33,560 bases of DNA. Origin: Patescibacteria group bacterium (GTDB lineage: Bacteria; Patescibacteriota; Minisyncoccia; Phycocordibacterales; UBA9973). The position numbers were made by a program, and so were the translations under genes. The DNA is taken from contig JAHJBA010000057.1 in the NCBI GenBank assembly GCA_018813625.1, positions 1 to 33,560 of the forward strand. The letters are read 5' to 3'. The notes below the pieces were generated by a model, which worked only from the letters and a program-made list of their open reading frames with translations, was not told the DNA's origin and searched no databases. Numbering within the stretch: the first letter of the stretch is position 1; every line of letters starts with the position of its first letter. Positions 4,420-31,595 of the stretch are shown one piece after another.

Positions 4420-4455
4420 AGCCTTTTGTTTTGACAACACGAGGCTTTTTTTATT
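4419..4455 (+). terminator. Putative rho-independent terminator
   Basis: AGCCTTTTGTT-ttgac-AACACGAGGCT hairpin followed by TTTTTTTATTT. Confidence 0.55.
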
Positions 4456-4457
4456 TG

Positions 4458-4525
4458 ATCCCGTAGTAGATTTTGATGATGCCCTTAAGGCGCGCTTTGC
4501 GCTTCATCAAAATTCACTACCGGAT
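4458..4525. repeat. Family C palindromic element, copy C2
   Basis: ATCCCGTAGTAGATTTTGATGA ... GCGCGCTTTGCGC ... TCATCAAAATTCACTACCGGAT. About 22-bp arms, preceded by TTGAT; the last T begins the TTGACA -35 box. Confidence 0.85.
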
Positions 4526-4552
4526 TGACATTGTTTTCTAATTTGCTATTAT
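4525..4552 (+). promoter_or_regulatory. Sigma70-like promoter upstream of tuf
   Basis: TTGACA (4525-4530), 16-nt spacer, TATTAT (4547-4552). Confidence 0.6.
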
Positions 4553-5963: not shown

Positions 5964-6407
5964 ATGACAACATCAGAAACAAAAGTAAAAAAGCCGAAAG
6001 CGGTAAAAGCGACAAAAGCAACGAAGACAGTTAAAGCAGTCGCTAAAACGACCACTAAGGATTCCAAAGAGCCGAAAACAAAAAAGAAAAAAGAGGATGG
6101 GAAAGTGGTACTTCGCATCAGAGTTCGTGCCTACGAGAGCAAGATACTAGATGCGTCAGTCAAACAAATTATAGATACCGCAATGCGTTACGATGCCACT
6201 GTCGTTGGGCCGGTTCCTTTGCCAACGGAGATTAAGAAATATACGGTTAATCGTGCTTCTTTTATCTACAAAAATACACGAGAACAATTTGAAATAAGAG
6301 TACATAAAAGATTAATTGATATTATTAACCCGTCAGCAAAAACAGTTGAAGCGCTTACTAACCTTTCGCTTCCTTCGGGAGTTGATATTGACGTGAAGAT
6401 GCTGTAA
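5964..6407 (+). CDS. rpsJ: 30S ribosomal protein S10 with a ~45-aa Lys-rich N-terminal extension
   Basis: The C-terminal ~100 aa (LRIRVRAYESKILD...PLPT...) are canonical S10. The N-terminus is KKPKAVKATKATK...KTKKKK. Confidence 0.95.
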   Translation: MTTSETKVKKPKAVKATKATKTVKAVAKTTTKDSKEPKTKKKKEDGKVVLRIRVRAYESKILDASVKQIIDTAMRYDATVVGPVPLPTEIKKYTVNRASFIYKNTREQFEIRVHKRLIDIINPSAKTVEALTNLSLPSGVDIDVKML

Positions 6408-6414
6408 GAAGGAA

Positions 6415-6544
6415 ATGAATCCCGTTAGAAGCCGCGATCGCAATTTAAAAATAGATAAAAATATGAAATCAAATATAGAAAAAATTAATAACATAAAACA
6501 TCAGATATGCGAGTTGATCGCGATCTGCTTCTAAACAGGATGAA
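6415..6544 (+). repeat. Family A start-codon hairpin element, copy A1 (between rpsJ and rplC)
   Basis: ATGAA|TCCCGTTAGAAGCCGCGATCGC ...~75 nt A-rich... GATCGCGATCTGCTTCTAAACAGG|ATGAA. Long inverted repeat with a duplicated ATGAA. Confidence 0.85.
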
Positions 6545-7156: not shown

Positions 7157-7284
7157 ATGGATCCCGTTAGAAGTCGCGATCGCGATTATAATGGAAATAA
7201 AAACATGAAAGAAGATAATAAAACACAAAAAAATATTGAAACTTCCGAAAATACCAGATCGCGACCTACTTCTAACGGGATGGA
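7157..7284 (+). repeat. Family A element, copy A2 (between rplC and rplD)
   Basis: ATGGA|TCCCGTTAGAAGTCGCGATCGCG ... AGATCGCGACCTACTTCTAACGGG|ATGGA. 14-bp perfect outer stem plus a 7-bp CGCGATC/GATCGCG inner stem. Confidence 0.85.
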
Positions 7285-7939
7285 AGCAAAAATTTACAAT
7301 CAAAAAGGAATTGAAAAAGGAAAAATAATTCTTTCAGAGAAGGTTTTTGGTGCTAAGTGGCGAGCTGATTTGGTTCATCAGGTCGTAGAAGGCATGCGTT
7401 CTAATAAAAGAGCTGGTACAGCGGATACAAAAGGTAGAGGGGAGGTTTCTGGAGGAGGAAAGAAGCCTTGGAAACAAAAAGGAACAGGACGTGCTCGTCA
7501 TGGATCCACACGAAGCCCTATTTGGGTTGGAGGGGGTGTTACCCATGGGCCTCTTGCAGAAAAGAACTATAAAAGGAAGATTTCGAAGACAATGCGTGCA
7601 CAAGCTTTATTTTCAGTTTTGTCAAAAAAATTAAAAGACGAGGAGATACTCTTTGTTGATTCTTTATCCTTGCCCGGAATTAAGACAAAAGACGCCGTGG
7701 AAGTAATGAAAAATTTAGCTAAGGCCTCAGGATTTAAAATGATCGCTGAATCAAAAAAACCTAAAGCTCTTGTGGCTCTCTATGAGAGAAACGAGAAAGC
7801 AGAAAAAAGTTTTAGAAATTTATCTCAACTTGAAATGGTTTTTTTAAAAAACTTAAACCCCGTAGATGTTTTGAATCATAGATATCTTTTGATAGAAAAT
7901 CCAGAAGAAAGTGTTAAGTTTTTAGAAAGTCGAGGTTAA
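7280..7939 (+). CDS. rplD: 50S ribosomal protein L4
   Basis: MEAKIYNQKG...; KPWKQKGTGRARHGSTRSPIWVGGGVTHGP motif. The upstream in-frame 41 codons (from 7157) are repeat A2. Confidence 0.88.
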   Translation: MEAKIYNQKGIEKGKIILSEKVFGAKWRADLVHQVVEGMRSNKRAGTADTKGRGEVSGGGKKPWKQKGTGRARHGSTRSPIWVGGGVTHGPLAEKNYKRKISKTMRAQALFSVLSKKLKDEEILFVDSLSLPGIKTKDAVEVMKNLAKASGFKMIAESKKPKALVALYERNEKAEKSFRNLSQLEMVFLKNLNPVDVLNHRYLLIENPEESVKFLESRG

Positions 7940-7943
7940 AAAT

Positions 7944-8016
7944 ATACTTGTCCCGTGCTAAATTTTTGATTACGGGGCATAAAGATGAAGATTATTAATA
8001 AAATTTTAGTACTGGG
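7944..8016 (+). repeat. Family B hairpin element, copy B1 (between rplD and rplW)
   Basis: ATACTTGTCCCGTGCTAAATTTTTGATTACGGGGCATAAAGATGAAGATTATTAATAAAATTTTAGTACTGGG, immediately followed by the ATG of rplW. Confidence 0.85.
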
Positions 8017-8292
8017 ATGATAACGATGAAAATAATTAAAAAACCAAGAGTTACCGAGAAGGCATCTTTCGTGGCAGAACAGAATGTTTACACTTTTGAT
8101 GTCCCAAAGTCTGCAAATAAAACGGAGATTAAAAAAGCAATTTTTGAACTTTATAAAGTAAAGCCAGTTAAAGTAAATATTTTAACAGTTCCATCAAAGA
8201 AGATTTTTGTTAGAGGAAAAGTTGGGACAAAGAGTGGTGGTAAAAAAGTTCTTGTTTATTTAAAAAAAGAAGATAAGATAGAAATTATTTAA
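8017..8292 (+). CDS. rplW: 50S ribosomal protein L23
   Basis: IIKKPRVTEKA... is L23-like; position between L4 and L2. The start could also be the ATG at 8026. Confidence 0.92.
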   Translation: MITMKIIKKPRVTEKASFVAEQNVYTFDVPKSANKTEIKKAIFELYKVKPVKVNILTVPSKKIFVRGKVGTKSGGKKVLVYLKKEDKIEII

Positions 8293-14730: not shown

Positions 14731-15303
14731 ATGGAAAAAACAAATGAAAAAAAGAATAATCGTCGGACTTCTTCTTTTAGTAAACCAAAACCTGAATTTG
14801 ATCAGAAAATTGTGGATATCCGTCGTGTAACTCGTGTGGTTGCTGGCGGACGTAGATTTTCTTTTAGTGTTGTATTGGTGGCGGGAGACAGAAAAGGATC
14901 TATTGGTCTTGGGTTAGGAAAGGCGGGAGACACCTCTTTGGCGATAAACAAAGCCCTCAGAAATGCTAAGAAAAATATGATAAAACTTAACTTAACAAAA
15001 ACAATGTCAATTCCGCACGAACTTTCCGCAAAATTTTCAAGTTCAAGTATAATTATTATACCCAACAAAGGACGTGGCCTTGTAGCAGGCTCAGTGATTC
15101 GTGACATTGTTAAGTTAGCTGGGATTAAGGATATTACTGGAAAAATCTTATCTGGCAGTAAAAACAAGCTTAATAATGCTAAGGCTGTTATGACAGCACT
15201 TTCTATTATTTCTAGCAAGTATTCAAAGCCCATATTGAGGGAAGAGGAGAACGAGAAAAATGTTTTGAAGGGCGATTTAGCAGAAGTCGAGGAAGATAAA
15301 TAA
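14731..15303 (+). CDS. rpsE: 30S ribosomal protein S5 (with terminal extensions)
   Basis: IVDIRRVTRVVAGGRRFSFSVVLVAGDRKGSIGLGLGKA motif; 190 aa. Confidence 0.93.
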   Translation: MEKTNEKKNNRRTSSFSKPKPEFDQKIVDIRRVTRVVAGGRRFSFSVVLVAGDRKGSIGLGLGKAGDTSLAINKALRNAKKNMIKLNLTKTMSIPHELSAKFSSSSIIIIPNKGRGLVAGSVIRDIVKLAGIKDITGKILSGSKNKLNNAKAVMTALSIISSKYSKPILREEENEKNVLKGDLAEVEEDK

Positions 15304-15307
15304 ATTT

Positions 15308-15379
15308 TACTTGTCCCGTACTAAATTTTTGATTACGGGGCATAACAATGAAGATTATTAATAAAATTTTAGTACTGGG
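15308..15379 (+). repeat. Family B hairpin element, copy B2 (between rpsE and rplO, in the usual L30 slot)
   Basis: TACTTGTCCCGTACTAAATTTTTGATTACGGGGCATAACAATGAAGATTATTAATAAAATTTTAGTACTGGG followed by the ATG of rplO. Confidence 0.85.
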
Positions 15380-15817
15380 ATGCAGATACATAATTTAAAA
15401 AGACAACATAAGAACAAAAAAGATCGCATGGTTGGCCGTGGAGGAAAACATGCAAAAACATCGGGTCGTGGAGGTAAGGGGCAGACCGCAAGGGCTGGCA
15501 ATAAGCGACGTCCGGAATTACGTGATATCATAAAAAAATTACCGAAAAACCGTGGATATAAATTTAATTCTTTTCAAATAAAACCGGTTGGTGTTTCGTT
15601 TGATAAAATAATGGGAGCATATTCGAATGGTGGGACAGTTGACCCTATTAGTCTACTTGAATTGAAGATAATAAGTAAAAAGAAAGGGATTGTTCCAAAA
15701 GTTAAAATTTTGAACGGCAAAAAAGACTTTAACTTAAAAATAAAAATTTCAAAGTGTTTTGTTTCTGATTCTGTTAAAAAAAAGATAGCAGAATTGGGCG
15801 GAGAAATTGAACTATAA
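15380..15817 (+). CDS. rplO: 50S ribosomal protein L15
   Basis: GRGGKHAKTSGRGGKGQTARAG motif; position before secY. Confidence 0.93.
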   Translation: MQIHNLKRQHKNKKDRMVGRGGKHAKTSGRGGKGQTARAGNKRRPELRDIIKKLPKNRGYKFNSFQIKPVGVSFDKIMGAYSNGGTVDPISLLELKIISKKKGIVPKVKILNGKKDFNLKIKISKCFVSDSVKKKIAELGGEIEL

Positions 15818-15821
15818 AAAT

Positions 15822-17093
15822 ATGCAAAATTTTCTTAAAAAAATAAAATTAGTTTGGACAGATCATTCTTTGCGAAAAAAGATTTTATTTGTGCTTCTTT
15901 CTTTAGTTGCTTTTAGATTACTTGCTTCGATTCCCATACCGGGAATCGATACACTAGAGCTTGATAGGTTTTTGACCAATAATCAGTTTTTTGGTATTTT
16001 AAATATATTTTCTGGAGGAGGACTTTCCAATCTTTCTATAATAATGCTTGGCGTCGGTCCATACATTACAAGCTCAATTATTATGCAGTTGCTTACTATT
16101 ATGGTTCCGGCTTTAAAAAAGCTTTACCACGAAGAAGGGGAGCTGGGAAAGAAAAAATTTACCCAGTATTCGAGGATTCTTACTGTCCCATTGGCAGCTA
16201 TTCAAGGTTTTAGTCTTTTGGCGATTTTAGAGGGTCAGAAGATTTTAGTTAATCTAACTTTATTTGACAGGGTAACAAATTTGATTATTGTGGTTGCTGG
16301 CTCAATGCTTCTAATGTGGATAGGTGAGCTTATCTCAGAATTTGGTATTGGTAATGGAGTTTCCCTCTTAATTTTTGCTGGTATAATAGCTGGTATTCCG
16401 TCACATGTGAGTCAGCTTATTTTTACTTTTGATGTTTCTCAAATTCCTCTTTATATTTTATTTATTGCCGTTGGGGCGCTTGTTGTTGCTGGAGTTGTTG
16501 TTGTCACGGAGGCGGAGCGTCCAATTCCTGTAACCTATGCAAAGCGTGTAAGGGGAATGAAAATGTATGGGGGTGGTTCAACATATTTACCGCTTCGCGT
16601 AAATCAGGCTGGGGTTATTCCAATAATTTTTGCACTTTCTATTTTACTCTTTCCGCAGATGATAGGTAATTTTTTGGCTGGCTCAACTAACGCAGTTGTA
16701 ATGAAAATTTCTCATGCATTAGTTTCGTTTTCACAAACAGGCTTGTTATATGCTGTTCTGTATTTTATATTAGTATTTTTATTTACTTATTTTTATACTG
16801 CAGTTACTTTTGACCCAGAGGCTCTTTCTACTAATTTACAAAAAAACGGGGCTTTTATTCCGGGCATTCGACCAGGTGCTTCTACTTCAGCTTATATTTC
16901 AAAGGTTTTAAATCGTATTACCATGATGGGAGCAATATTTTTGGGTGTAATTGCAATCCTTCCTTTAATTATGCGTGCGATGACAGGTATTACGGCCATA
17001 GCTCTCGGCGGAACGGCACTTCTCATTGTGGTTTCTGTTGTTCTTGATTTGATCAAAAAAGTGGACGCGCAAATCTCGATGCGGGAGTATTAA
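15822..17093 (+). CDS. secY: Preprotein translocase subunit SecY
   Basis: Multi-TM protein; GIGNGVSLLIFAGI motif. ATG at 15822 is preferred over the TTG at 15807, which overlaps rplO. Confidence 0.95.
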   Translation: MQNFLKKIKLVWTDHSLRKKILFVLLSLVAFRLLASIPIPGIDTLELDRFLTNNQFFGILNIFSGGGLSNLSIIMLGVGPYITSSIIMQLLTIMVPALKKLYHEEGELGKKKFTQYSRILTVPLAAIQGFSLLAILEGQKILVNLTLFDRVTNLIIVVAGSMLLMWIGELISEFGIGNGVSLLIFAGIIAGIPSHVSQLIFTFDVSQIPLYILFIAVGALVVAGVVVVTEAERPIPVTYAKRVRGMKMYGGGSTYLPLRVNQAGVIPIIFALSILLFPQMIGNFLAGSTNAVVMKISHALVSFSQTGLLYAVLYFILVFLFTYFYTAVTFDPEALSTNLQKNGAFIPGIRPGASTSAYISKVLNRITMMGAIFLGVIAILPLIMRAMTGITAIALGGTALLIVVSVVLDLIKKVDAQISMREY

Positions 17094-17099
17094 TTTTTG

Positions 17100-17164
17100 A
17101 CCTGGTAGTGAATTTTGATGATATTTAAATGCGTTTTGCGCGTCATCAAAATCTACTACCGGGT
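17100..17164. repeat. Family C palindromic element, copy C3 (arms in flipped orientation)
   Basis: ACCTGGTAGTGAATTTTGATGA ... GCGTTTTGCGC ... TCATCAAAATCTACTACCGGGT. Preceded by TTGAC; the last T begins the TTGATT -35 box. Confidence 0.85.
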
Positions 17165-17192
17165 TGATTATTTTCTAAAAAGTGTGTATTCT
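17164..17192 (+). promoter_or_regulatory. Sigma70-like promoter of adk; geometry predicts a leaderless mRNA
   Basis: TTGATT (17164-17169), 17-nt spacer, TATTCT (17187-17192), then 6 nt to the ATG at 17199. Confidence 0.55.
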
Positions 17193-17198
17193 TTTGAT

Positions 17199-17783
17199 AT
17201 GAATTCAAAAGCTTTTTTGTTTTTTGGACGATCGGGGTGTGGAAAAGGCACCCAAGCTAAACTCTTGGCAGATTTTTTAAGGGATAAAGGGAGAAAGGTG
17301 GTTTATGTGGAGACAGGGGGTCGGTTTCGAGAATTTATGAAAAAAGAAAGTTATTCTAGTCAATTGACACAAAATATTTTACATGAAGGAGGTTTGTTGC
17401 CGGTTTTTTTACCTATCTGGCTTTGGACCAATATTTTGGTTGATAATTTTTCTGGTGAAGAGGATTTAATTTTAGATGGATTATGCAGGAGAAAAGAGGA
17501 ATCAATGGCACTTGATTCTGCTTTTGATTTTTATAAAATCGAGAGACCGAATATCATTTTAATGAATGTCTCTAGAGAATGGTCTTTTGATAGAATGATG
17601 AAAAGAAAGCGCCCAGATGACACGCCGGAGAAGATACAAAATCGCCTAGATTGGTTTACAAAAGATGTTATGCCTGCGATTGATTATTTTCGTGAGAAGC
17701 CGGAATGTAATTTTATTGAAGTAAACGGAGAACAGTCTATTGAAGACGTGCACAAGGATATCATTAAAGCCTTAGGACTGTAA
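17199..17783 (+). CDS. adk: Adenylate kinase-like nucleoside monophosphate kinase
   Basis: MNSKAFLFFGRSGCGKGTQAKLL P-loop; position after secY. The track start at 17115 runs through repeat C3. Confidence 0.85.
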   Translation: MNSKAFLFFGRSGCGKGTQAKLLADFLRDKGRKVVYVETGGRFREFMKKESYSSQLTQNILHEGGLLPVFLPIWLWTNILVDNFSGEEDLILDGLCRRKEESMALDSAFDFYKIERPNIILMNVSREWSFDRMMKRKRPDDTPEKIQNRLDWFTKDVMPAIDYFREKPECNFIEVNGEQSIEDVHKDIIKALGL

Positions 17784-17856
17784 TACTTGTCCCGTATGAA
17801 ATTTTTGATTAAACGAAATAAAGATGAATACAAAAAATAAAAATTTTCATACTGGG
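17783..17856 (+). repeat. Family B hairpin element, copy B3 (divergent; between adk and the pyrH-like gene)
   Basis: ATACTTGTCCCGTATGAAATTTTTGATTAAACGAAATAAAGATGAATACAAAAAATAAAAATTTTCATACTGGG followed by ATG at 17857. Both arms changed in a compensatory way. Confidence 0.8.
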
Positions 17857-18537
17857 ATGGAAGAAATAATAATCATTTCACTCGGAGGTTCACTCATTAT
17901 TCCCGATCAGATAGATGTGGATTTTTTGAAAGACTTCAAAAATCTGATTCTTTTGCATATTTCACAAGGGAAAAAATTTATAATCATAACCGGCGGTGGA
18001 AAGATCTGCAGAAGGTATCAAGAAGTTGCTAAAGAAATTTCGAATCCCTCAAATGAAGACTTAGATTGGATAGGGATTGCTTCTCTTAAACTAAATGCGG
18101 AACTGCTCAGGGTTATTTTTAGTGAAAAGGCACACGAAAAAGTTGTTAGTGATCCACACCAGAAATTGTCTTTTGAAAAGCCGATTATCATTTGTTCAGC
18201 TTATAAGCCTGGAAGGAGTACGGATTGGGATACCGTGATAGTGGCCAAGAATGTTGGTGCCAAAAAAGTAATCAATCTTTCGAACATTGACTATGTTTAT
18301 GATTCTGACCCGAAGATAAACCCAAATGCTAAAAAGATAGAAAAGATATCTTGGGCGGAATATCGTTCAATTATCCCAAAAGAATGGAATCCAGGCTTAA
18401 ATACTCCTTTTGACCCTATTGCTTCAGAAATGGCTGAAAAAGAGGGAATGCAGGTCGTAATTATGAACGGCAAGCCAGTGAGTAATTTAGCTAAGTGTTT
18501 GAATGGCGAGAAGTTTCTTGGAACGATAATAGAATGA
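17857..18537 (+). CDS. pyrH: Amino-acid-kinase-fold protein, archaeal-type UMP kinase-like
   Basis: MEEIIIISLGGS..., ITGGGK, ...SDPKINPNAKKIEKIS... and ...GTIIE resemble archaeal-type uridylate kinases of ~225 aa. The start is chosen at the ATG that follows repeat B3. Confidence 0.7.
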   Translation: MEEIIIISLGGSLIIPDQIDVDFLKDFKNLILLHISQGKKFIIITGGGKICRRYQEVAKEISNPSNEDLDWIGIASLKLNAELLRVIFSEKAHEKVVSDPHQKLSFEKPIIICSAYKPGRSTDWDTVIVAKNVGAKKVINLSNIDYVYDSDPKINPNAKKIEKISWAEYRSIIPKEWNPGLNTPFDPIASEMAEKEGMQVVIMNGKPVSNLAKCLNGEKFLGTIIE

Positions 18538-20201
18538 ACGAAAAAAACGAAAAAAAAATATGTAAGACTTGTGGAAAGGATTTTGAAATAAGAAAAGAGG
18601 ATTTTATATTTTTTAAACAGGTAAAAACTGCGTCACCACTAGATTGTCCTGATTGTCGCATGGCGAGGCGTTTAGTGTTTCGGAATGAAAGAACTCTTTA
18701 TAAGAGAGCGTGTGATCTTTGTAAAAGAGATTTAATAACAGTTTATTCGCCAGAATCAGATTTTAAGGTTTATTGTCATGATTGTTGGTGGAGTGATTCT
18801 TGGGATCCAAAAAGCTTTGCGATGAATTATGATTTAAATAAATCTTTTTTTGAACAATATAAAGAGTTACAAAAAAAAGTTCCTAGACAAAGCATGGCAG
18901 CGGTAAATAATGTTAGAAGTGATTATACTAATGGTTCTGCGGAAAATAAAGACTGTTATTTAATTTTTGCTGCTGATTATAATGAGGACTGCATGTATGG
19001 TAGGTTGCTTCAAAGAGATAAAAATTGTCTTGATTGTGCTTTTTTGCATGAATCAGAACTTTGTTATGAATGTATTGATTCTAGAAGTTGTTTTAAGTGT
19101 ATGTTTTGCGAGCAATGTCAGTCATCAAGTGATTTGCTGTTTTGTTATAATATGAGAGATTCAAATAATTGTATTCTTTGTACAAATGGAAGACATTTAT
19201 CTAATTCAATTTTAAATGTTAAATATTCTAAAGAAGAATTTGAAAAGAAAAAAGCTGAAATTCTTTCTAGTTATGAAAATATTGAAAAAGCAAAAGAAGA
19301 GTTTTCTGAATTAAAGAAAAATACTATTGTAAAATATGCTTGTCAAACAAAATGTAACGAGGTTACTGGTAATTATTTACACAATTGTCATCAGGGAATA
19401 ATGCTTTATGATACTTATGATTCAAAAAACTGTTCTTATATGACAGATACCGAAAGTCCTATTGACAGTCAAGACTGTAATAATTATTATTATAAACCAC
19501 AATTTGGATATAACGTTATGGGAGCATTAGAAGGTAGTCAATTAAAAAATAGTGCTTTCGTTTTTTATTGTAACGAAGTTGAATATTGTGAAAATTGTCA
19601 TCATTTAATAAACGGGATAGGATGTAGCGCTATTCGCAGAGGGGAATATATGATTCTTAACAAACAATACACAAAAGAAGAATATTATAAGTTGAAAGAA
19701 AAGATAGAAGAACAGATGAAAAAGGAAGGAACTTACGGGCAATTTTTTCCAGCTGAACTTGCGCCGTTCGGATATAATGAAACATTAGCGCAAGATTATA
19801 TTCCATTAAAAAAAGAAGAAGCTTTGAAAAGAGGTTTTAGTTGGCAAGAAAAAATAACAGGTACTTATGGAAAAGAAACCATTAAAAAAAGCGAGATACC
19901 AAGTTCTATAGAAAATATAGATGAAAGTATTTTAAAAGAAATATTAGTGTGTGAAGAATGTAATAAAAATTTTAGAATTACTGAAGCAGAGTTAAGTTTT
20001 TACAAAAGAATGCATTTACCATTACCACATAAAGATTTTGAGTGTAGACATAAAGATAGAATGTTAAAGAGAAATCCACGTAAACTCTGGCATAGAAAAT
20101 GCATGAAAGAAGGTTGTAAGAATGAATTTGAGACAAGTTATGCACCTGATCGACCAGAGATTGTATATTGTGAGGACTGTTATAAAAAAGAGGTATACTA
20201 A
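18534..20201 (+). CDS. Cysteine-rich protein (555 aa) with homologous zinc-ribbon-like modules at both termini; function unknown
   Basis: The ATG overlaps the pyrH-like stop (ATGA at 18534-18537). N-terminal CKTCGKDF...CPDCR...CDLC...CHDCWW and C-terminal CEECNKNF...ECRHKDR...CEDCY. The central region is dense in C-x2-C. Confidence 0.8.
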   Translation: MNEKNEKKICKTCGKDFEIRKEDFIFFKQVKTASPLDCPDCRMARRLVFRNERTLYKRACDLCKRDLITVYSPESDFKVYCHDCWWSDSWDPKSFAMNYDLNKSFFEQYKELQKKVPRQSMAAVNNVRSDYTNGSAENKDCYLIFAADYNEDCMYGRLLQRDKNCLDCAFLHESELCYECIDSRSCFKCMFCEQCQSSSDLLFCYNMRDSNNCILCTNGRHLSNSILNVKYSKEEFEKKKAEILSSYENIEKAKEEFSELKKNTIVKYACQTKCNEVTGNYLHNCHQGIMLYDTYDSKNCSYMTDTESPIDSQDCNNYYYKPQFGYNVMGALEGSQLKNSAFVFYCNEVEYCENCHHLINGIGCSAIRRGEYMILNKQYTKEEYYKLKEKIEEQMKKEGTYGQFFPAELAPFGYNETLAQDYIPLKKEEALKRGFSWQEKITGTYGKETIKKSEIPSSIENIDESILKEILVCEECNKNFRITEAELSFYKRMHLPLPHKDFECRHKDRMLKRNPRKLWHRKCMKEGCKNEFETSYAPDRPEIVYCEDCYKKEVY

Positions 20202-20203
20202 AA

Positions 20204-20276
20204 ATACTTGTCCCGTACTGAATTTTTGATTACGGGGCATAAAGATGAAGATTATTAATAAAATTTTAGTACTGGG
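20204..20276 (+). repeat. Family B hairpin element, copy B4 (between the Cys-rich ORF and map)
   Basis: ATACTTGTCCCGTACTGAATTTTTGATTACGGGGCATAAAGATGAAGATTATTAATAAAATTTTAGTACTGGG followed by the ATG of map. Confidence 0.85.
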
Positions 20277-21047
20277 ATGGCAATAATAATTAAAACACCA
20301 GAGGAAATAAAAATAATAAGAGAAGGAGGGAAAAGACTCGCTACTGTTTTAAACAAAGTTAAGGAGATGGTTGCTCCTGGTATTTCGACTAAGGATTTGG
20401 ACGATTATGCAAGAAAGCTTATCAGTGAGATGGGAGACTATCCATCTTTTTTAAATTATTCACCCGATGGTGCCAGCAAGCCCTATCCAGCGGCTCTTTG
20501 CGTATCGGTTAATGATGAAGTTGTACACGGCATTCCTAACAAAGATAGAATTTTGCAAGAAGGAGATATCGTTTCTATAGATCTGGGATTGAAGCATAAA
20601 AATCTTTTTACCGACATGGCCATGACAGTTTCGGTTGGCGAAATAAGTTCGTCTTCAAAGAAGCTTTTAGAAACAACGGAGAGGGCATTGTATGTTGGAA
20701 TAAATGCTGTGCGAGCAGGAAATAGAATAGGAGATATAGGTCATGCTATAGAAAGTTTTGTTCGTCCACATAGGTATGGCATTGTAGAAGTTTTGGCGGG
20801 GCATGGTGTTGGTAAGGCGGTTCACGAGGATCCATATATTACAAATTTTGGCAAAAAGGGAATGGGGGAGAAATTAGTTCCAGGTATGGTTATAGCCATA
20901 GAGCCGATGATAAATAATGGAACTAAAAATGTGACCCTAGATAAGGACGGTTATACTTTTCGTACCGCAGACGGAAAAAAGAGTGCACACTTCGAGCACA
21001 CCATTCTTGTCACGGAAGGGGAGCCAGAAATCTTGACTCGAATATAA
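20277..21047 (+). CDS. map: Type I methionine aminopeptidase
   Basis: 256 aa; HGIPN, DxG...D, HGVG, EPM and EHT metal-ligand pattern. Confidence 0.96.
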   Translation: MAIIIKTPEEIKIIREGGKRLATVLNKVKEMVAPGISTKDLDDYARKLISEMGDYPSFLNYSPDGASKPYPAALCVSVNDEVVHGIPNKDRILQEGDIVSIDLGLKHKNLFTDMAMTVSVGEISSSSKKLLETTERALYVGINAVRAGNRIGDIGHAIESFVRPHRYGIVEVLAGHGVGKAVHEDPYITNFGKKGMGEKLVPGMVIAIEPMINNGTKNVTLDKDGYTFRTADGKKSAHFEHTILVTEGEPEILTRI

Positions 21048-29150: not shown

Positions 29151-30488
29151 CAACCGGACTTGGTTAAATATAGTATTTATGCGATTTTCTTCTTTGGCCT
29201 CGCCAATTATGCGTATTACTGGCTCAGTATTGGAGGGTCTAATATGAACCCATGAAGAGTCTGGCCAGTCGAAGCGTAGGCCGTCTAGGGTGTTTGTAGA
29301 TGCCTCTTTGAACTTTGCCTTAAGTTTCTCATAAAGTAGAGTTAGGTCGCCAGAAAAGGTAATTTTATCTTTTTTCATAAAATATTTAGGCAGGCTCTCT
29401 ATAATTTCTGATATATTTTTTTTCTCTCTTGCCATAAGCTCGAGAACAAGAGCAATACCGGCCAGGCTATCTCTGGCTGTATTTATTTTAGAATAAATGA
29501 CCCCACCATTTCCTTCTCCTCCTATGAGTGCGCCTCTTTCAATCATTTTTTCGACTACATTAGGTTCGCCGACTTTTGTTCTAAAAACTTTTTTATTGTA
29601 ATTATTTGCCAAGTCTTCACACATTTTTGAGGTAGACATATTTAAGATCACATCGCTAGGGTTTTTAGATAGAACACTTTTTACGGCGAGTGCTAGTGTA
29701 TATTCTTCATTTAAAATTTCTCCTTTTTCATTTGCGAGTACCAGACGGTCAGCATCGGGGTCCTGGGCGAATCCTATATCTGAATTATTTTTAGAGACTG
29801 CTTCCGCTAGTTGTTTTAAATTTTTTGCCAGTGGTTCTGGTTCGTGCGCGAATTCTCCATTTTGTTCTTCGTTGATTTGAGAAACTTCACAGCCGAGTTC
29901 CTCCAGTAATTTTTTTGTGATTGTACTGCCTGCGCTATTTATAGGATCGTGGGTAACTTTAAATTTTTTGCTTTTGATCAGGTTTACGTCTATATTTTTT
30001 AATACTTCTTTTATGTGTATCTTTTGATAGCTAGAATTGTCGCAAACTTCTTCCTCATTTTCTTTTTGTGAAAAATTTTTTTCATCTTCAATTAAATTTT
30101 TTCTATTTTCCTCGATTTTTTCTATTTCTTTTTGGGTGGCGAATAGACCATTTTTATTTATAAATTTAAGACCGTTATATTCTCTAGGATTATGCGAAGC
30201 AGTTATCATTATTCCTCCACCAAAAGAGAGTTTTCTTGCTAGAAGAAGCATCGATGGAGTAGGGATGATGCCGGCGTATTCTCCCTCTAAGCCTTCTTTT
30301 TTTAATGCTAATTTTATAGCTTTAAATATTTGTGGTCCGGTTTTGCGTGCATCTCGCCCGATTAAAATTTTATGGCCTCCTTGTTCTTTTATCATTTTTG
30401 CAAAAGCACGCCCAAAATCAAAAGCGATTTTCTCGTCTAAATCTTTGCCCCATATTCCTCTATATCCCGAAACATTCAATTTTGGCAT
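29142..30488 (-). CDS. glmM: Phosphoglucosamine mutase / phosphohexomutase family protein
   Basis: ITASHNPREYNGLKF phosphoserine loop; DPDADR; GGEGNGG. The gene symbol is tentative because PGM/PMM cannot be excluded. Confidence 0.8.
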   Translation of the reverse strand: MPKLNVSGYRGIWGKDLDEKIAFDFGRAFAKMIKEQGGHKILIGRDARKTGPQIFKAIKLALKKEGLEGEYAGIIPTPSMLLLARKLSFGGGIMITASHNPREYNGLKFINKNGLFATQKEIEKIEENRKNLIEDEKNFSQKENEEEVCDNSSYQKIHIKEVLKNIDVNLIKSKKFKVTHDPINSAGSTITKKLLEELGCEVSQINEEQNGEFAHEPEPLAKNLKQLAEAVSKNNSDIGFAQDPDADRLVLANEKGEILNEEYTLALAVKSVLSKNPSDVILNMSTSKMCEDLANNYNKKVFRTKVGEPNVVEKMIERGALIGGEGNGGVIYSKINTARDSLAGIALVLELMAREKKNISEIIESLPKYFMKKDKITFSGDLTLLYEKLKAKFKEASTNTLDGLRFDWPDSSWVHIRPSNTEPVIRIIGEAKEENRINTIFNQVRLIL

Positions 30489-30549: not shown

Positions 30550-30557
30550 CTTAGATG

Positions 30558-30947
30558 TGGAGATGGGGGGAATTGAGCCCCCGTGCAGAAGGTTTTTGTA
30601 AGGAAGTCTACATACTTAGCGCGCTTGTTTGTTTAAATTAAAAAATTATTAAGCGAGCGAAATATTTTTTAATCGATCCTCTATGTTTTGGAAGAAAGTC
30701 GAGGTATTCTTTTTCCTATCCCGATAATATTATGCCTTACCCTATATATCGGAAGTCTATAGGGAAGACACCAACTTACGCTAGAGCGTATGCTGGAGCA
30801 AATCCGAACGCATTACCGAAGTAAGGCGAACGAACTGCCTTAGTAGCTAATTTTGCAATTAGACATTTGAGCGAAGTTTTGCGAGATTGCGCTCATTCTC
30901 GGTATGCATCAATAACAAAAGGCCAACTGTCTATGCCTTGCATCCCC
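30558..30947 (-). ncRNA. ssrA: tmRNA (SsrA)
   Basis: Minus strand 5' GGGGATGCAAGGCATAGACAG pairs with the 3' ...GGGGGCTCAATTCCCCC-CATCTCC-A. This gives an acceptor stem with a G3.U pair and a T-arm. An internal frame ends ...GNAFGFAPAYALA-TAA (stop 30776-30778). Lies 11 nt downstream of smpB. Confidence 0.8.
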
Positions 30948-30958
30948 ATTTTTTGTTT

Positions 30959-31420
30959 TCAACGTCCTTTATATTCGCGCCTTACTTCTCTTTCCGTCTC
31001 GCGCTTTTTGATCGTCTCTCTCTTGTCGTGTTTCTTTTTTCCTTTCACTAAAGCAATTTCTACTTTAATTTTTCTGCCTTTATTATACACTGAAATTGGC
31101 ACTATTGTCAAACTTTTGTTTTTTTCGCTTCCGGCAAGTTTTTCTACTTCTTTTTTGGTCAGCAAAAGTTTTCTATTTCTAAGCGGATCGTAATCTTTCG
31201 GCATATTATTTGGCTGGTATGGTTGTATATTTGTATTGATTAAAAAAGCTTCACCTCCACGAATTATGACATAAGCCCCCTCGAGCGATATTTTTCCGCT
31301 TCTGATGGATTTAACTTCAACTCCTAAAAGCTCAATGCCTGTTTCGTATTTTTCGAGAATTTCGTAATTAAAATGTATTTTTCTGTTTTCAGCGTAGTTT
31401 GCCATATCCAATCTTACCAT
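30959..31420 (-). CDS. smpB: SsrA-binding protein SmpB
   Basis: ENRKIHFNYEILEKYETGIELLGVEVKSIRSGKISL... and the C-terminal basic tail. The start could be the internal ATG at 31405. Confidence 0.93.
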   Translation of the reverse strand: MVRLDMANYAENRKIHFNYEILEKYETGIELLGVEVKSIRSGKISLEGAYVIIRGGEAFLINTNIQPYQPNNMPKDYDPLRNRKLLLTKKEVEKLAGSEKNKSLTIVPISVYNKGRKIKVEIALVKGKKKHDKRETIKKRETEREVRREYKGR

Positions 31421-31452: not shown

Positions 31453-31461
31453 TGCTAATAT
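31453..31461 (+). promoter_or_regulatory. Extended -10 promoter (TGcTAATAT) positioned 6 nt before the first ATG of element A4
   Basis: TG at 31453-31454, TAATAT at 31456-31461, then CTACGC, then ATG at 31468. Confidence 0.45.
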
Positions 31462-31467
31462 CTACGC

Positions 31468-31595
31468 ATGGATCCCGTTAGAAATCATTCAGTTAATTGA
31501 AATTACGGGAAATAATATATTGAATTAGCTTGTATAGTCGTTTTTAGTAATTTAACTACGGAAATCTAAAGATTTCCTATTTCTAACGGGATGGA
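31468..31595 (+). repeat. Family A element, copy A4 (on the ftsH start codon)
   Basis: ATGGA|TCCCGTTAGAAAT ... ATTTCTAACGGG|ATGGA. 14-bp perfect terminal stem; the interior differs from A1-A3 and has the internal hairpin GGAAATC-taaa-GATTTCC. Confidence 0.85.

Follow-up and report, generated by a model that had tools for sequence, protein, structure and literature searches.

What function a conserved hairpin could serve when it ends exactly on a start codon is the question raised by this locus. The stretch of DNA analysed here (the window, 33,560 nucleotides) contains four copies of such a hairpin, which we call Family B. An earlier note, made from the sequence alone, had described three near-identical copies and one divergent copy beginning at 7944, 15308, 17783 and 20204, and our analysis agrees with it in both number and position (Table 1). 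All four lie on the + strand, and each has GGG immediately 5' of an ATG. Over 80 nt, identity to copy 1 is 94% for copy 2 and 96% for copy 4, whereas copy 3 shows 65% in an ungapped comparison. The two altered arm positions of copy 3 are compensatory (ACTA/TAGT to ATGA/TCAT), and an orthologue with the identical arm variant is present at another locus (L024). A covariance model run over the whole window with filters off returned exactly four strong matches (89.5-96.2 bits), all on the + strand. The 3' arm AAAATTTTAGTACTGGG has five matches in the window at up to 3 mismatches, compared to 0.33 expected, and none of 100 shuffles reached five; among these matches is a 5' arm read on the reverse strand.

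The downstream start codon stands at the 3' foot of the long hairpin in all four window copies, and the reuse of the element before unrelated genes also holds, as the ORFs downstream of copies 1-4 were assigned by Pfam to L23, L15 (Ribosomal_L27A), AA_kinase and Peptidase_M24 (methionine aminopeptidase). The + strand of the window copies folds at -16.1 to -17.4 kcal/mol (z of -2.1 to -3.1), compared to only -8.6 and -9.8 kcal/mol (z about -1) for the - strand of copies 1 and 4. As the earlier note suggested, the left-arm G of copy 1 forms a G.U pair, which points to RNA of the + strand; a second G.U pair is found in copy 4. A scan of the whole window against Rfam 15 (cmscan, E<=1) identified no family at any of the four copies, in agreement with the claim that the element is not a described ribosomal-protein leader. 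Elsewhere in the window the same scan found only tmRNA and two sub-threshold leader-peptide matches, and a tRNA scan gave no match.

Table 1. Positions of the Family B copies in the window and of the features that adjoin them.
Feature	Position	Strand	Details
Copy 1	7945..8016	+	tACTTGT-CCCGTGCTAAATTTT ... AAAATTTTAGTACTGGG; covariance model 96.2 bits; -17.4 kcal/mol
Copy 1, upstream flank	7937-7939		rplD stop
Copy 1, downstream flank	8017-8019		rplW (L23) ATG
Copy 1, 5' arm	7949..7967	+	UGU (pairs with AUG), CCC, GUGCUAAA, UUUU; G at 7957 gives the G.U pair
Copy 1, 3' arm	8000..8019	+	bulged U, GGG, paired start codon ATG 8017-8019 of rplW
Copy 2	15308..15379	+	95.9 bits; rpsE stop 15301-15303 upstream; rplO ATG 15380-15382 downstream
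Copy 3	17784..17856	+	divergent, arms ATGA/TCAT; 89.5 bits
Copy 3, upstream flank	17781-17783		adk stop, directly upstream
Copy 3, downstream flank	17857-17859		ATG of AA_kinase gene
Copy 4	20205..20276	+	94.8 bits; map ATG 20277-20279 downstream
Copy 4, upstream flank	20199-20201		stop of 555-aa zinc-finger-like ORF
-10-like hexamer TATACT	20194..20199	+	6 nt 5' of the A in copy 4 ACTTGT; read from sequence

Family B is not confined to the window. A scan with the 5' arm identified at least 105 loci in at least 73 Ca. Nomurabacteria/Paceibacterota assemblies, and metagenomes supplied at least about 80 further copies, in samples biased by their patterns (17 fixed bases of the 5' arm in the first scan, both feet fixed in the second). 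Several MAGs have at least four copies. The family is specific to Ca. Nomurabacteria/Paceibacterota (Patescibacteria), a group of ultra-small, uncultured bacteria. In viral contigs the 3' arm was unmatched and the element was not found; the seven viral matches listed for the 5' arm were taken as chance, as they had no counterparts in the 3'-arm scan.

All 103 strong covariance-model matches listed are oriented alike with respect to the downstream ORF, and 98 of them adjoin a start codon at the 3' foot (ATG in 94, GTG in 4). This is not a product of construction, since the search specified the 5' arm only. The random positions and orientations that the earlier note had named as evidence against its reading were not seen among these matches. 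No nucleotide ever intervenes between the helix end and the AUG. The element exists in two discrete sizes: the 5' flank tACYTGT is followed by a core of either 65-68 nt or 96-103 nt. It has at least three unrelated types of loop, and loop subtypes are common to non-orthologous sites. The genes located 3' of it are diverse and unrelated, mostly with translation, cell-envelope and housekeeping functions.

The stem consists of 18 pairs (up to approximately 23 in the commonest loop type) between inverted-repeat arms of 17-21 nt, and the folding energy of the + strand ranges across the family from -16 to -21 kcal/mol at 37 °C. Building a covariance model and searching relatives, as had been suggested, revealed a lineage-wide family with structure-supporting compensatory changes in larger alignments. 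Among the genome matches listed, 99.1% of 1854 cells are paired and 23 are compensatory, compared to 1.8 in shuffles, and 0 of 500 shuffles reached 23; only 33-56% of cells were paired in slid-alignment controls. For the matches listed from an independent metagenome sample the corresponding values are 98.4% paired and 31 compensatory cells vs. 2.9, with 8 arm variants that are each fully complementary; in both samples the independent compensatory events are fewer than the cell counts (there are, for example, only 3 independent GTG events). G.U cells outnumber A.C cells by 205 to 4 among the matches listed. The folding strand is the mRNA sense strand, the only one on which the G.U wobbles of the foot can form.

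The start codon itself is base-paired within this conserved helix. The lowest pairs of the stem, between UGU and AUG, are U.G, G.U and U-A, and the foot pairs with AUG are kept in 95-98% of the copies listed. The base preceding CCC covaries with the first base of the start codon (Fisher p = 1.4e-6): among the matches listed, 93 combine T with ATG, 4 combine C with GTG and 1 combines C with ATG, and U-A is replaced by C-G in all four GTG copies listed. At the next position, which faces the U of AUG, only purines occur (G in 97 and A in 6 of the matches listed). The codon at the 5' foot is YUG and not AUG, with purines depleted at Y (A in 3 and G in 3 of 86 copies listed). A pairing of this Y, before UGU, with the base after ATG was also considered, and inspection of the alignment showed no relation between them.

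The surroundings of the element fall into two main types. In 49 of the 92 copies listed, an upstream ORF on the same strand stops within 12 nt of the element, most commonly 2-3 nt before tACYTGT, so that 4-9 nt separate this stop from the first pair of the stem. Spacers of 7 nt or less precede the element at 43 of 58 filled junctions, compared to 15 of 56 empty junctions measured from stop to ATG (p = 7e-7). Of the remaining 43 copies listed, 21 have TAnnnT at -21 to -17 (background 16%), 11 of the 21 in combination with a -35 box. Many copies without a close upstream stop thus appear to start about 7 nt after a -10 box, at predicted transcription starts that would lie approximately 4 nt from the first stem pair. 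The hexamer TATACT upstream of copy 4 lies at the modal position of the family's -10-like hexamers, and the predicted transcription start of this copy is 20206, the first conserved base of the element. A promoter scan made a single promoter-like call close to a copy, TTTAGA-16-TATACT (7921-7948) near copy 1, which would borrow the element's own tACT; this -10 reading was rejected because the defining positions A2 and T6 are less conserved there.

The lineage has essentially no Shine-Dalgarno sequences. A Shine-Dalgarno-like 4-mer was found at 1 of 69 homology-verified starts and at none in the window, and several first genes have leaderless-type spacing, with a -10 box followed after 6-7 nt by the ATG. 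No 16S rRNA was found in the fetched loci. A terminator scan found no terminator at any copy, and there is no U-tract 3' of the hairpin.

We tentatively favor, at somewhat less than even chances, a model in which Family B is a copy-and-paste palindromic cassette whose looped-out mRNA hairpin masks the AUG and sets it beside the point at which ribosomes arrive; we infer all steps of this model from sequence. Ribosomes probably reach start codons from the mRNA 5' end or from an upstream stop codon, because Shine-Dalgarno sequences are absent, first genes look leaderless and internal genes begin a few bases after a stop. The folded hairpin would loop out its own sequence, leaving the AUG within a few nucleotides of this delivery point, and would conceal the AUG from independent internal initiation. 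A ribosome terminating or loading at the 5' foot might then melt the weak wobble foot and initiate at the AUG, so that the net effect would be translational coupling across the base of the hairpin. Coupling or attenuation had been proposed in the earlier note; the geometry of the copies with a close upstream stop fits the former, but the lack of a U-tract or terminator speaks against the latter. With respect to its origin, the cassette may spread or be exchanged among sites like a mobile or recombining element, after which the structure and much of the sequence would be maintained by selection.

Several considerations weigh against coupling. Copies at transcription starts have no upstream ribosome to open the stem, and we know of no precedent for a 5'-end-loading ribosome that uses an AUG whose pairing partners are nucleotides 4-6 of its own transcript. 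The hairpin, which would be even stabler in cold groundwater, should strongly inhibit initiation unless it is opened or cut. The short spacers at filled sites could reflect an insertion preference for tightly coupled gene pairs and not a functional constraint, and the conservation of the loop could stem from homogenisation against a conserved master copy instead of site-by-site selection. A bolder and rather doubtful extension is that hairpin-bridged initiation is a regular mode of translation in Nomurabacteria and relatives without Shine-Dalgarno sequences, carried by a portable cassette that passes from gene to gene; it would be the bacterial analogue of the ribosome shunt. A ribosome at the mRNA 5' end or at an upstream stop would then be handed across the hairpin base to the AUG paired with the 5' foot. 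In a variant of the same idea, the upper helix, at -5 to -12 from the AUG and above the bulged U, would dock in the place usually taken by the Shine-Dalgarno duplex.

The comparison of orthologous junctions bears on both the origin and the maintenance of the element. At rplE, secY, rplX, rpsN, map and AAK the junction is filled in some species and empty in others, and the empty junctions read stop, 2-11 nt, ATG. Where two species are both filled, the element has diverged far less than synonymous sites: in 19 orthologous pairs, identity at the saturated four-fold degenerate sites is 0.12-0.65 (mostly 0.2-0.4), compared to 0.58-0.97 for the element and 0.35-0.93 for its loop. The same genomes contain two sister families, A and C, with the ends T-CCCGT...ACGGG-A in common. 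Both are flanked by short direct repeats (ATG plus 1-3 nt; TTGA) that resemble target-site duplications, although those of Family A vary in length. Family A has ATG at both feet and clearly interrupts a leaderless adk gene at locus L072, and Family C hairpins are located directly upstream of, and overlap, -35 boxes. At another locus (L025), other palindromic families lie between ribosomal protein genes.

These patterns raise the alternative that Family B is a selfish palindromic repeat (MITE, REP or ERIC-like) that inserts 5' of start codons, is tolerated because its hairpin neutralises the insertion and is of no use to the cell, which we regard as unlikely but as a serious contender. Family B does resemble a MITE in having terminal inverted repeats, several non-coding copies and insertion polymorphism, the last seen in the filled and empty orthologous junctions. 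Near-identical copies occur within one genome and share derived loop features (window copies 1, 2 and 4), the loop subtypes and two length classes are reminiscent of MITE subfamilies, and the same origin is suggested by the ends and flanking repeats of the sister families, by the interrupted adk gene and by the additional palindromes at L025. However, no target-site duplication is visible for Family B where filled and empty orthologous sites were compared (rplE, secY). Nor was an autonomous partner seen, although the sole search, which looked through approximately 1.5 Mb of fetched loci for a long arm pair enclosing an ORF, carries no weight owing to a fault in its 3'-arm pattern; the only long-range pairs it returned were neighbouring copies in opposite orientation (L151). 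A single orientation at a start codon in nearly all matches listed would be unexpected from random insertion followed by tolerance, and the arm compensation and the covariation of U/C with AUG/GUG fit a folded single strand and not the recognition of double-stranded ends by a transposase. Copies at the same gene also retain conserved loops across species that are saturated at synonymous sites, and none were found in viral contigs. Other mobile or catalytic elements were considered and dropped: integron attC, relative to which the GTT/AAC core order is reversed; small self-cleaving ribozymes, of which no core is present; and the ends of group I/II introns.

Other explanations place the function of the hairpin elsewhere in gene expression. 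The zero spacing between helix end and AUG would suit an RNA processing signal, at which RNase III or a hairpin-specific enzyme cuts near the 3' foot to free a leaderless 5'-AUG mRNA while the upstream mRNA keeps a protective 3' hairpin, a 'hairpin punctuation' akin to mitochondrial tRNA punctuation. The lineage apparently translates leaderless mRNAs without Shine-Dalgarno sequences, a stem of 17-23 bp suffices for double-strand-specific RNases, and the hairpin is too stable for spontaneous opening. However, processing needs neither a paired start codon nor its covariation with the opposite U/C, and copies at transcription starts could be leaderless without any hairpin, so we consider this explanation improbable. 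Somewhat more improbable still is a common operator for a trans-acting protein or RNA, or an RNA thermometer, that controls a housekeeping regulon by masking the start codon. Such a role is consistent with a start codon held in a helix closed by weak wobble pairs, with unpaired loop positions conserved between species and with the functions of the downstream genes, but loops of at least three unrelated types, and cores of either length class, do equally well, which argues against a single sequence-specific loop ligand. In addition, membership of the supposed regulon differs between species, and we found no candidate for such a factor. A switch of the leader-peptide or attenuation type, in which translation of a mini-ORF and two mutually exclusive folds control the downstream gene, is largely refuted by the comparative data and we assign it very little probability. 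The mini-ORF that the earlier note had reported (MKIINKILVLG) is present in window copies 1, 2 and 4 but is not conserved across the family. In copy 3 the corresponding ATG shares the reading frame of the downstream gene. Among the short-form copies listed, an ATG of the window type is found in just 8 of 74 from genomes and 5 of 78 from metagenomes (most read GATAAAG), and other internal ATGs are in differing frames. The alternative CCCGTA/TACGGG pairing fared somewhat better, being available in 43 of the 74 short-form copies listed, and CGGG at this site is found in 36 of the 78 metagenome copies listed and recurs in a second loop subfamily. However, the pairing is absent from the whole type-2 loop subtype and is often lost through changes that are not compensated (CGTG, CGAG, CTGA), and a terminator U-tract is lacking. 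Finally, the conservation of TTGATT and TAAAAT, together with the overlap of the related Family C hairpins with -35 boxes, might suggest an element that acts as DNA, either a promoter that travels with the element, with TTGATTA as its -35 box and TAAAAT as its -10 box, or a palindromic transcription-factor site. We find this scarcely credible, as the two motifs are 27-29 nt apart in the short form and much further in the long form, TAAAAT lies 12 nt from the ATG compared to 6-7 nt at the leaderless genes of this genome, and the promoter scan calls no site that uses either motif. Duplex DNA also cannot explain the G.U asymmetry together with the compensatory changes.

Family B shares features with several known systems. 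Like the ERIC, REP/BIME and Correia-type repeats of enterobacteria and Neisseria, it is a short imperfect palindrome with many copies per genome, is conserved across related species, lies inside operons, forms an RNA hairpin when transcribed and is present or absent at orthologous sites. Those repeats occur in either orientation and at variable distance from genes, and Correia/MITE elements are flanked by target-site duplications and end in known transposase-type sequences; in contrast, Family B has one orientation, no target-site duplication that we could see and a 3' foot fused to a start codon embedded in the helix. A reading frame that stops a few nucleotides before a stable stem, with a restart directly 3' of that stem, is also the layout of the CaMV 35S ribosome shunt and of the T4 gene 60 bypass, and about half of the copies listed share it (close upstream stop, AUG at the 3' foot). 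The gene 60 bypass spans 50 nt and involves elongating ribosomes, and the shunt in the CaMV 35S leader involves eukaryotic scanning ribosomes. Both are single viral cases, whereas Family B is found at many cellular genes of a bacterial lineage and would act at initiation by a hop that is only putative. Matched take-off and landing codons of the gene 60 type are not found in Family B, with its 5' YUG, but Family A has ATG on both feet.

The MS2 replicase operator and the coupling of E. coli ribosomal proteins likewise hold a downstream start in a helix that can be opened by an upstream ribosome, and Family B also occurs within ribosomal protein operons. However, those hairpins are gene-specific, evolved in place and work with a Shine-Dalgarno site, whereas Family B is one portable sequence before dozens of unrelated genes of a lineage that lacks Shine-Dalgarno sequences, and is also found at 5' ends without an upstream cistron. 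The ribosomal-protein leaders in Rfam share the position before ribosomal protein genes, but Family B is not tied to one ribosomal protein or its rRNA binding site. As far as we have found, this hairpin of approximately 72 bases is undescribed in Rfam and in the literature searched; the literature search, which included preprints, gave no account of Family B, of palindromic repeats in these genomes or of leaderless translation in Patescibacteria.

Family B bears on how bacteria without Shine-Dalgarno sequences, including those of the Candidate Phyla Radiation, choose their start codons, above all within operons. It is a single, easily recognisable and strongly constrained sequence that marks exact starts, holds a start codon whose pairing is supported by covariation and is located both at predicted 5' ends and after stops. 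It suggests well-defined constructs with which leaderless-type initiation and re-initiation in these organisms could be tested, and offers an example of a portable RNA module common to dozens of housekeeping genes. If it is only a tolerated repeat, it would illustrate how a selfish element that folds so as not to obstruct translation can persist in a minimal genome. The element is also an aid to annotation, in that an ATG at the foot of the hairpin indicates the gene start. By this family rule, the start of rplW is likely the ATG at the helix foot, with an alternative ATG at 8026.

All four Family B copies listed by the earlier note are present in the window (see the table), and a repeat finder grouped them as one 80-nt family, with identities to copy 1 of 94% for copy 2, 96% for copy 4 and 65% (ungapped) for copy 3. 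The 3' arm AAAATTTTAGTACTGGG had 5 matches in the window with at most 3 mismatches against 0.33 expected, a count reached in 0 of 100 shuffles. Scored without filters across the entire window, a covariance model returned exactly these four copies, at 89.5-96.2 bits and all on the + strand. Each copy has the terminal GGG followed directly by ATG, and copies 1, 2 and 4 have derived loop features in common (GATGAAG, one T missing). Folding energies of the window copies are -16.1 to -17.4 kcal/mol for + strand RNA, with z from -2.1 to -3.1; for copy 1 and copy 4 read on the - strand they are just -8.6 and -9.8 kcal/mol, with z near -1. The CxxC-rich protein upstream of copy 4 is absent at the equivalent place in three related loci (L024, L072, L090), and in other relatives (L048, L064, L102) members of its family stand in tandem, with up to four or five paralogues in a row, and Family B copies precede some of them.

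Positions and strands of features in the window
Feature	Position	Strand	Details
Family B copy 1	7945-8016	+	upstream ORF L4, downstream ORF L23 (rplW), Pfam
Family B copy 2	15308-15379	+	upstream ORF S5, downstream ORF L15 (rplO), Pfam
Family B copy 3	17784-17856	+	upstream ORF adenylate kinase, downstream ORF AA_kinase protein, Pfam
Family B copy 4	20205-20276	+	upstream 555-aa ORF, downstream ORF M24 methionine aminopeptidase (map), Pfam
CxxC-rich 555-aa protein	18534-20201		between AA_kinase gene and map; no Pfam match
TATACT before copy 4	20194-20199
Family A copy (~115-120 nt)	6414-6542	+	ends on ATG of rplC; preceded by direct repeat ATGAA of first gene bases
Family A copy (~115-120 nt)	7157-7282	+	ends on ATG of rplD; preceded by direct repeat ATGGA of first gene bases
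Family A copy (~115-120 nt)	31468-31593	+	ends on ATG of 638-aa ORF; preceded by direct repeat ATGGAT of first gene bases
Family A copy (~115-120 nt)	28391-28514	-	ends on ATG of rpmI; preceded by direct repeat ATGAA of first gene bases
ORF of Family A hairpin	7157-7279		in phase with rplD
Extended -10 box TGCTAATAT	31453-31461		6 nt 5' of Family A's 5' ATG
Family C copy	4451-4533	+	3' foot merges into -35 box, TTGACA-17-TATTAT at 4527
Family C copy	17093-17170	+	3' foot merges into -35 box of adk, TTGATT-17-TATTCT-6-ATG
Family C copy	29073-29157	-
Family C copy, degenerate	about 1805-1880
Leaderless-layout start, rpsL	391		GTG; putative promoter read from sequence
Leaderless-layout start, adk	17199		putative promoter read from sequence
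Leaderless-layout starts, ORFs	21723, 25393, 27180		putative promoters read from sequence
Leaderless-type start, glmM-like gene	30488	-	putative promoter read from sequence
tmRNA gene	30555-30947	-	113.8 bits; adjoins smpB
smpB	30959-31420	-
147-aa ORF	5964-6407		upstream of rplC, presumably rpsJ (S10) from position alone; lysine/alanine/threonine-rich N-terminal extension (MTTSETKVKKPKAVKATKATKTVKAVAKTTTK...)

A scan of one genome per species with the 5' arm only as the pattern (CCCGTNNNNAATTTTTGATTA) yielded at least 119 loci; 14 of the listed matches were chance occurrences in unrelated bacteria, and at least 105 loci came from 73 assemblies labelled Ca. Nomurabacteria, Paceibacterota/Paceibacteria, Parcubacteria or Patescibacteria. 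A Ca. Portnoybacteria contig contained one hybrid copy. Beyond the 5' arm, almost all of these loci have a conserved 3' arm, TAAAATTTTAGTACTGGG, and next an ORF that starts with ATG. Among the matches listed, cores of 65-68 nt make up one length class (72 copies) and cores of 96-103 nt the other (19 copies). The covariance model found 103 strong hits in the listed loci and the window, with ATG next to the 3' end in 94 and GTG in 4; in the remaining 5, as read from the sequences, the ORF has its start within the loop and continues across the arm. The downstream genes of the listed loci, named by reading their N-terminal sequences, are diverse housekeeping genes, encoding ribosomal proteins (L23, L15, L5, L24, S14, L11, S2, S16, S21) as well as SecY, Map, LepA, Obg, HPF, NusG, MreB, FtsA, GatA, Def, MetK and PurA. 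For metagenome contigs, a second pattern with a different bias specified nothing but the feet (TGTCCCGT and ACTGGGATG, 52-59 nt apart) and gave at least 122 matches, about 81 of those listed being true elements. Among the matches listed, the 5' arm was the same in 53 of 78 unique copies, and an unforced AC[CT] stood in front of 72 of 78; therefore, conservation of the arm is not an artefact of the first pattern. No Family B copy was found in a search of IMG/VR viral contigs.

RNAalifold on a MAFFT alignment of the 72 short copies gave a 17-pair stem with 1 non-standard cell across all 72. The model-based alignment of 103 copies, scored with the U.G foot pair included, had standard pairs in 99.1% of 1854 cells, with changes on both sides at 4 pairs and 23 compensatory cells vs. 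1.8 in shuffles (0 of 500 shuffles reached 23); independent compensatory events are fewer than these cell counts, because variants are common to related copies. Control structures slid by 1-3 columns paired in only 33-56% of cells. The independent metagenome sample was 98.4% paired, with 5 covarying pairs, 31 compensatory cells vs. 2.9, and eight fully complementary arm variants (ACTAAA/TTTAGT, AGTAAA/TTTACT, ATTAAA/TTTAAT, ATGAAA/TTTCAT, TAGAAA/TTTCTA, TGTAAA/TTTACA, TTTAAA/TTTAAA and TTAAAA/TTTTAA). Model-based alignments are biased towards the model's own structure; the MAFFT alignment presents the same picture. With the commonest loop type, the stem grows to about 23 pairs through pairing of GAUUA with UAAUU; the copy in one related locus (L032) folds at -21 kcal/mol.

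The start codon itself lies in the helix, where UGU 5' of CCC pairs with AUG as U.G, G.U and U-A. Next to CCC, 93 ATG copies have T and just one has C, and all 4 GTG copies have C (Fisher p = 1.4e-6), although the latter represent 3 independent events since two of them (L023 and L049) are orthologous. Facing the U of AUG there is always a purine (G in 97 and A in 6 of the 103 copies), and the whole stem contains 205 G.U cells vs. 4 A.C cells. Thus, the structure works only in the sense strand, in agreement with the asymmetry of fold energy and the G.U substitutions of window copies 1 and 4.

The conserved block opens with tACYTGT, where information content climbs sharply at -7 from CCCGT, and 49 of 92 copies among the matches listed have the stop codon of a same-strand ORF (at least 60 codons) within 12 nt of this block. 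The most common gap is 2-3 nt, so that 4-9 nt separate the stop codon from the first stem pair. A TAnnnT hexamer with its first base at -21 to -17 (background rate 16%) precedes 21 of the 43 remaining copies, 11 of them together with a -35 box, and the predicted transcription start would fall on the A of ACYTGT. Window copy 4 has its TATACT at the modal position; copies 1-3 lack a convincing -10 box and look operon-internal. Element-free, homology-verified ribosomal protein junctions have a median stop-to-ATG spacer of 12 nt, and spacers of at most 7 nt occur in front of the element at 43 of 58 filled sites vs. between stop and ATG at 15 of 56 empty sites (p = 7e-7).

In this lineage, Shine-Dalgarno sequences are all but absent. 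None was found at about 40 gene starts in the window, where upstream regions are A/T-rich, and among homology-verified starts of ribosomal protein operons, taken from the window and eight related loci, 1 of 69 had an SD-like 4-mer. Several first genes carry a putative -10 hexamer 6-7 nt 5' of the start codon, the layout of a leaderless mRNA.

We also compared the same operon junctions between the window and related loci (L016, L025, L039, L075, L086, L024, L072, L090). The rplW and rplO junctions are filled in the window, rplX in L016 and rpsN in L039. Both states were seen at rplE (filled in L025; empty in the window, L075 and L086), secY (filled in L075 and L086; empty in the window), map (filled in the window and L090; empty in L024 and L072) and the amino-acid-kinase gene (filled in the window, L024 and L072; empty in L090). 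Empty junctions read stop, 2-11 nt, ATG, and filled ones stop, 3-5 nt, ACYTGT...GGG, ATG, with no visible duplication flanking the element at the junctions compared. Loop subtypes are common to unrelated genes of different species. Family B thus comes and goes in the manner of a mobile or recombining cassette. Retained copies, however, evolve much slower than neutral sequence: in 19 pairs before orthologous genes of different species, four-fold degenerate sites have reached saturation (identity 0.12-0.65, mostly 0.2-0.4), whereas element identity is 0.58-0.97 and loop identity 0.35-0.93. Homogenisation against a conserved master copy may be part of the reason. A long-form copy before map in L090 (about 1233-1372) has the 3' arm AGTATGGGG, with four C paired with four G and the map start codon (MGIIIKT) inside the arm; it looks like a deletion variant whose hairpin itself supplies the ATG. 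In some long-form copies (L070, L094, L081, L033) an ORF starts in the loop and runs through the 3' arm as ...KSKILVLGLI, its frame ending in L033 at a TGA overlapping the foot ATG.

Two sister families occur in the same genomes and have the Family B ends, T-CCCGT...ACGGG-A. Family A (CCCGTTAGAAG...CTTCTAACGGG) likewise ends on the ATG of the downstream gene, and the opening 4-6 bases of that gene recur on its 5' side (ATGGAT/ATGGAT, ATGAA/ATGAA, ATGC/ATGC, ATGA/ATGA, ATGAAA/ATGAAA), as seen in roughly a dozen copies, L100 being the one exception. A -10 box lies 6-7 nt 5' of its 5' ATG in L001, L067, L072 and one window copy, and in L072 a leaderless adk gene is plainly interrupted by it. These repeats resemble either a target-site duplication or a matched pair of take-off and landing codons. 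Use of the 5' ATG at the rplD copy could add 41 residues (MDPVRSRDRD...RPTSNG) to L4; the rplC copy is out of phase. Family C (TCCCGTAGTAGATTTTGATGA...TCATCAAAATTCACTACCGGA) sits directly 5' of -35 boxes with flanking TTGA repeats, and its three intact window copies fold at -32 to -50 kcal/mol. Hybrids with B flanks and A arms occur in L001, L023 and L104. The flanking repeats give the strongest indication that DNA insertion is how the superfamily arises.

The analysis establishes the fold, the paired start codon, the restriction to the sense strand, the placement relative to stop codons and -10 boxes, the missing Shine-Dalgarno sequences, the turnover and the constraint. Our favoured, if tentative, reading is that the hairpin, acting as a bridge, couples initiation to the delivery of ribosomes at its 5' foot. 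The element would fill the exact place that ATG would hold, after a 5' end or a few bases past a stop codon, and folding would return the ATG to that place and mask it; it is for this reason that we prefer it, and a masked-and-returned ATG is the most economical reading of Family B. A merely tolerated selfish palindrome is less likely, since placement in one orientation and only at start codons, and long retention under constraint, would be left unexplained, although it accounts for the turnover and for the flanking repeats of the sister families. The zero spacing could also reflect a processing site that creates leaderless mRNAs, but this is improbable and leaves the pairing of AUG unexplained. 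A common operator or thermosensor, which would fit masking of the start codon, is slightly more doubtful still, as several interchangeable loop types suit it poorly.

The mini-ORF and attenuation model of the earlier note is very unlikely: it fails on conservation, with the window-type ATG in only 8 of 74 genome and 5 of 78 metagenome copies among the matches listed, and a U-tract for attenuation is absent. Least probable of all is a DNA-level promoter, which fails on spacing and is contradicted by the G.U evidence.

Family B had no match in Rfam 15, and no description of it was found in a search of full-text literature and preprints. Its components are familiar: intergenic palindromic repeats are known, among them ERIC, REP and Correia elements, and so are start-codon-sequestering hairpins for coupling. 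The combination is unfamiliar; we are aware of no second portable hairpin of conserved sequence that is joined to the start codons of dozens of unrelated housekeeping genes, at both 5' ends and intercistronic junctions, in a lineage lacking Shine-Dalgarno sequences. Less probably, it is the sign of an initiation mode of its own.

Other palindromes were seen in related loci. Those of L025 (Ca. Nomurabacteria GW2011_GWB1_43_19), before rplW, rplB, rplX, rplF and rplR, belong to unrelated families that lie between ribosomal protein genes without fusion to the ATG (e.g., CCCATAAGTCAGACATATGGGAATTCCCATATGTCTGACTTATGGG and CAGGTGTTGGACACC...GGTGTCCAACACCTG). A copy in L113 (855-934, - strand) combines Family A-type arms with a B-type 5' arm tail, and is followed about 20 nt on by an apparent tRNA gene (GGGTGGGATGGCTGAGTGGTTGAAAGCG) instead of a start codon.
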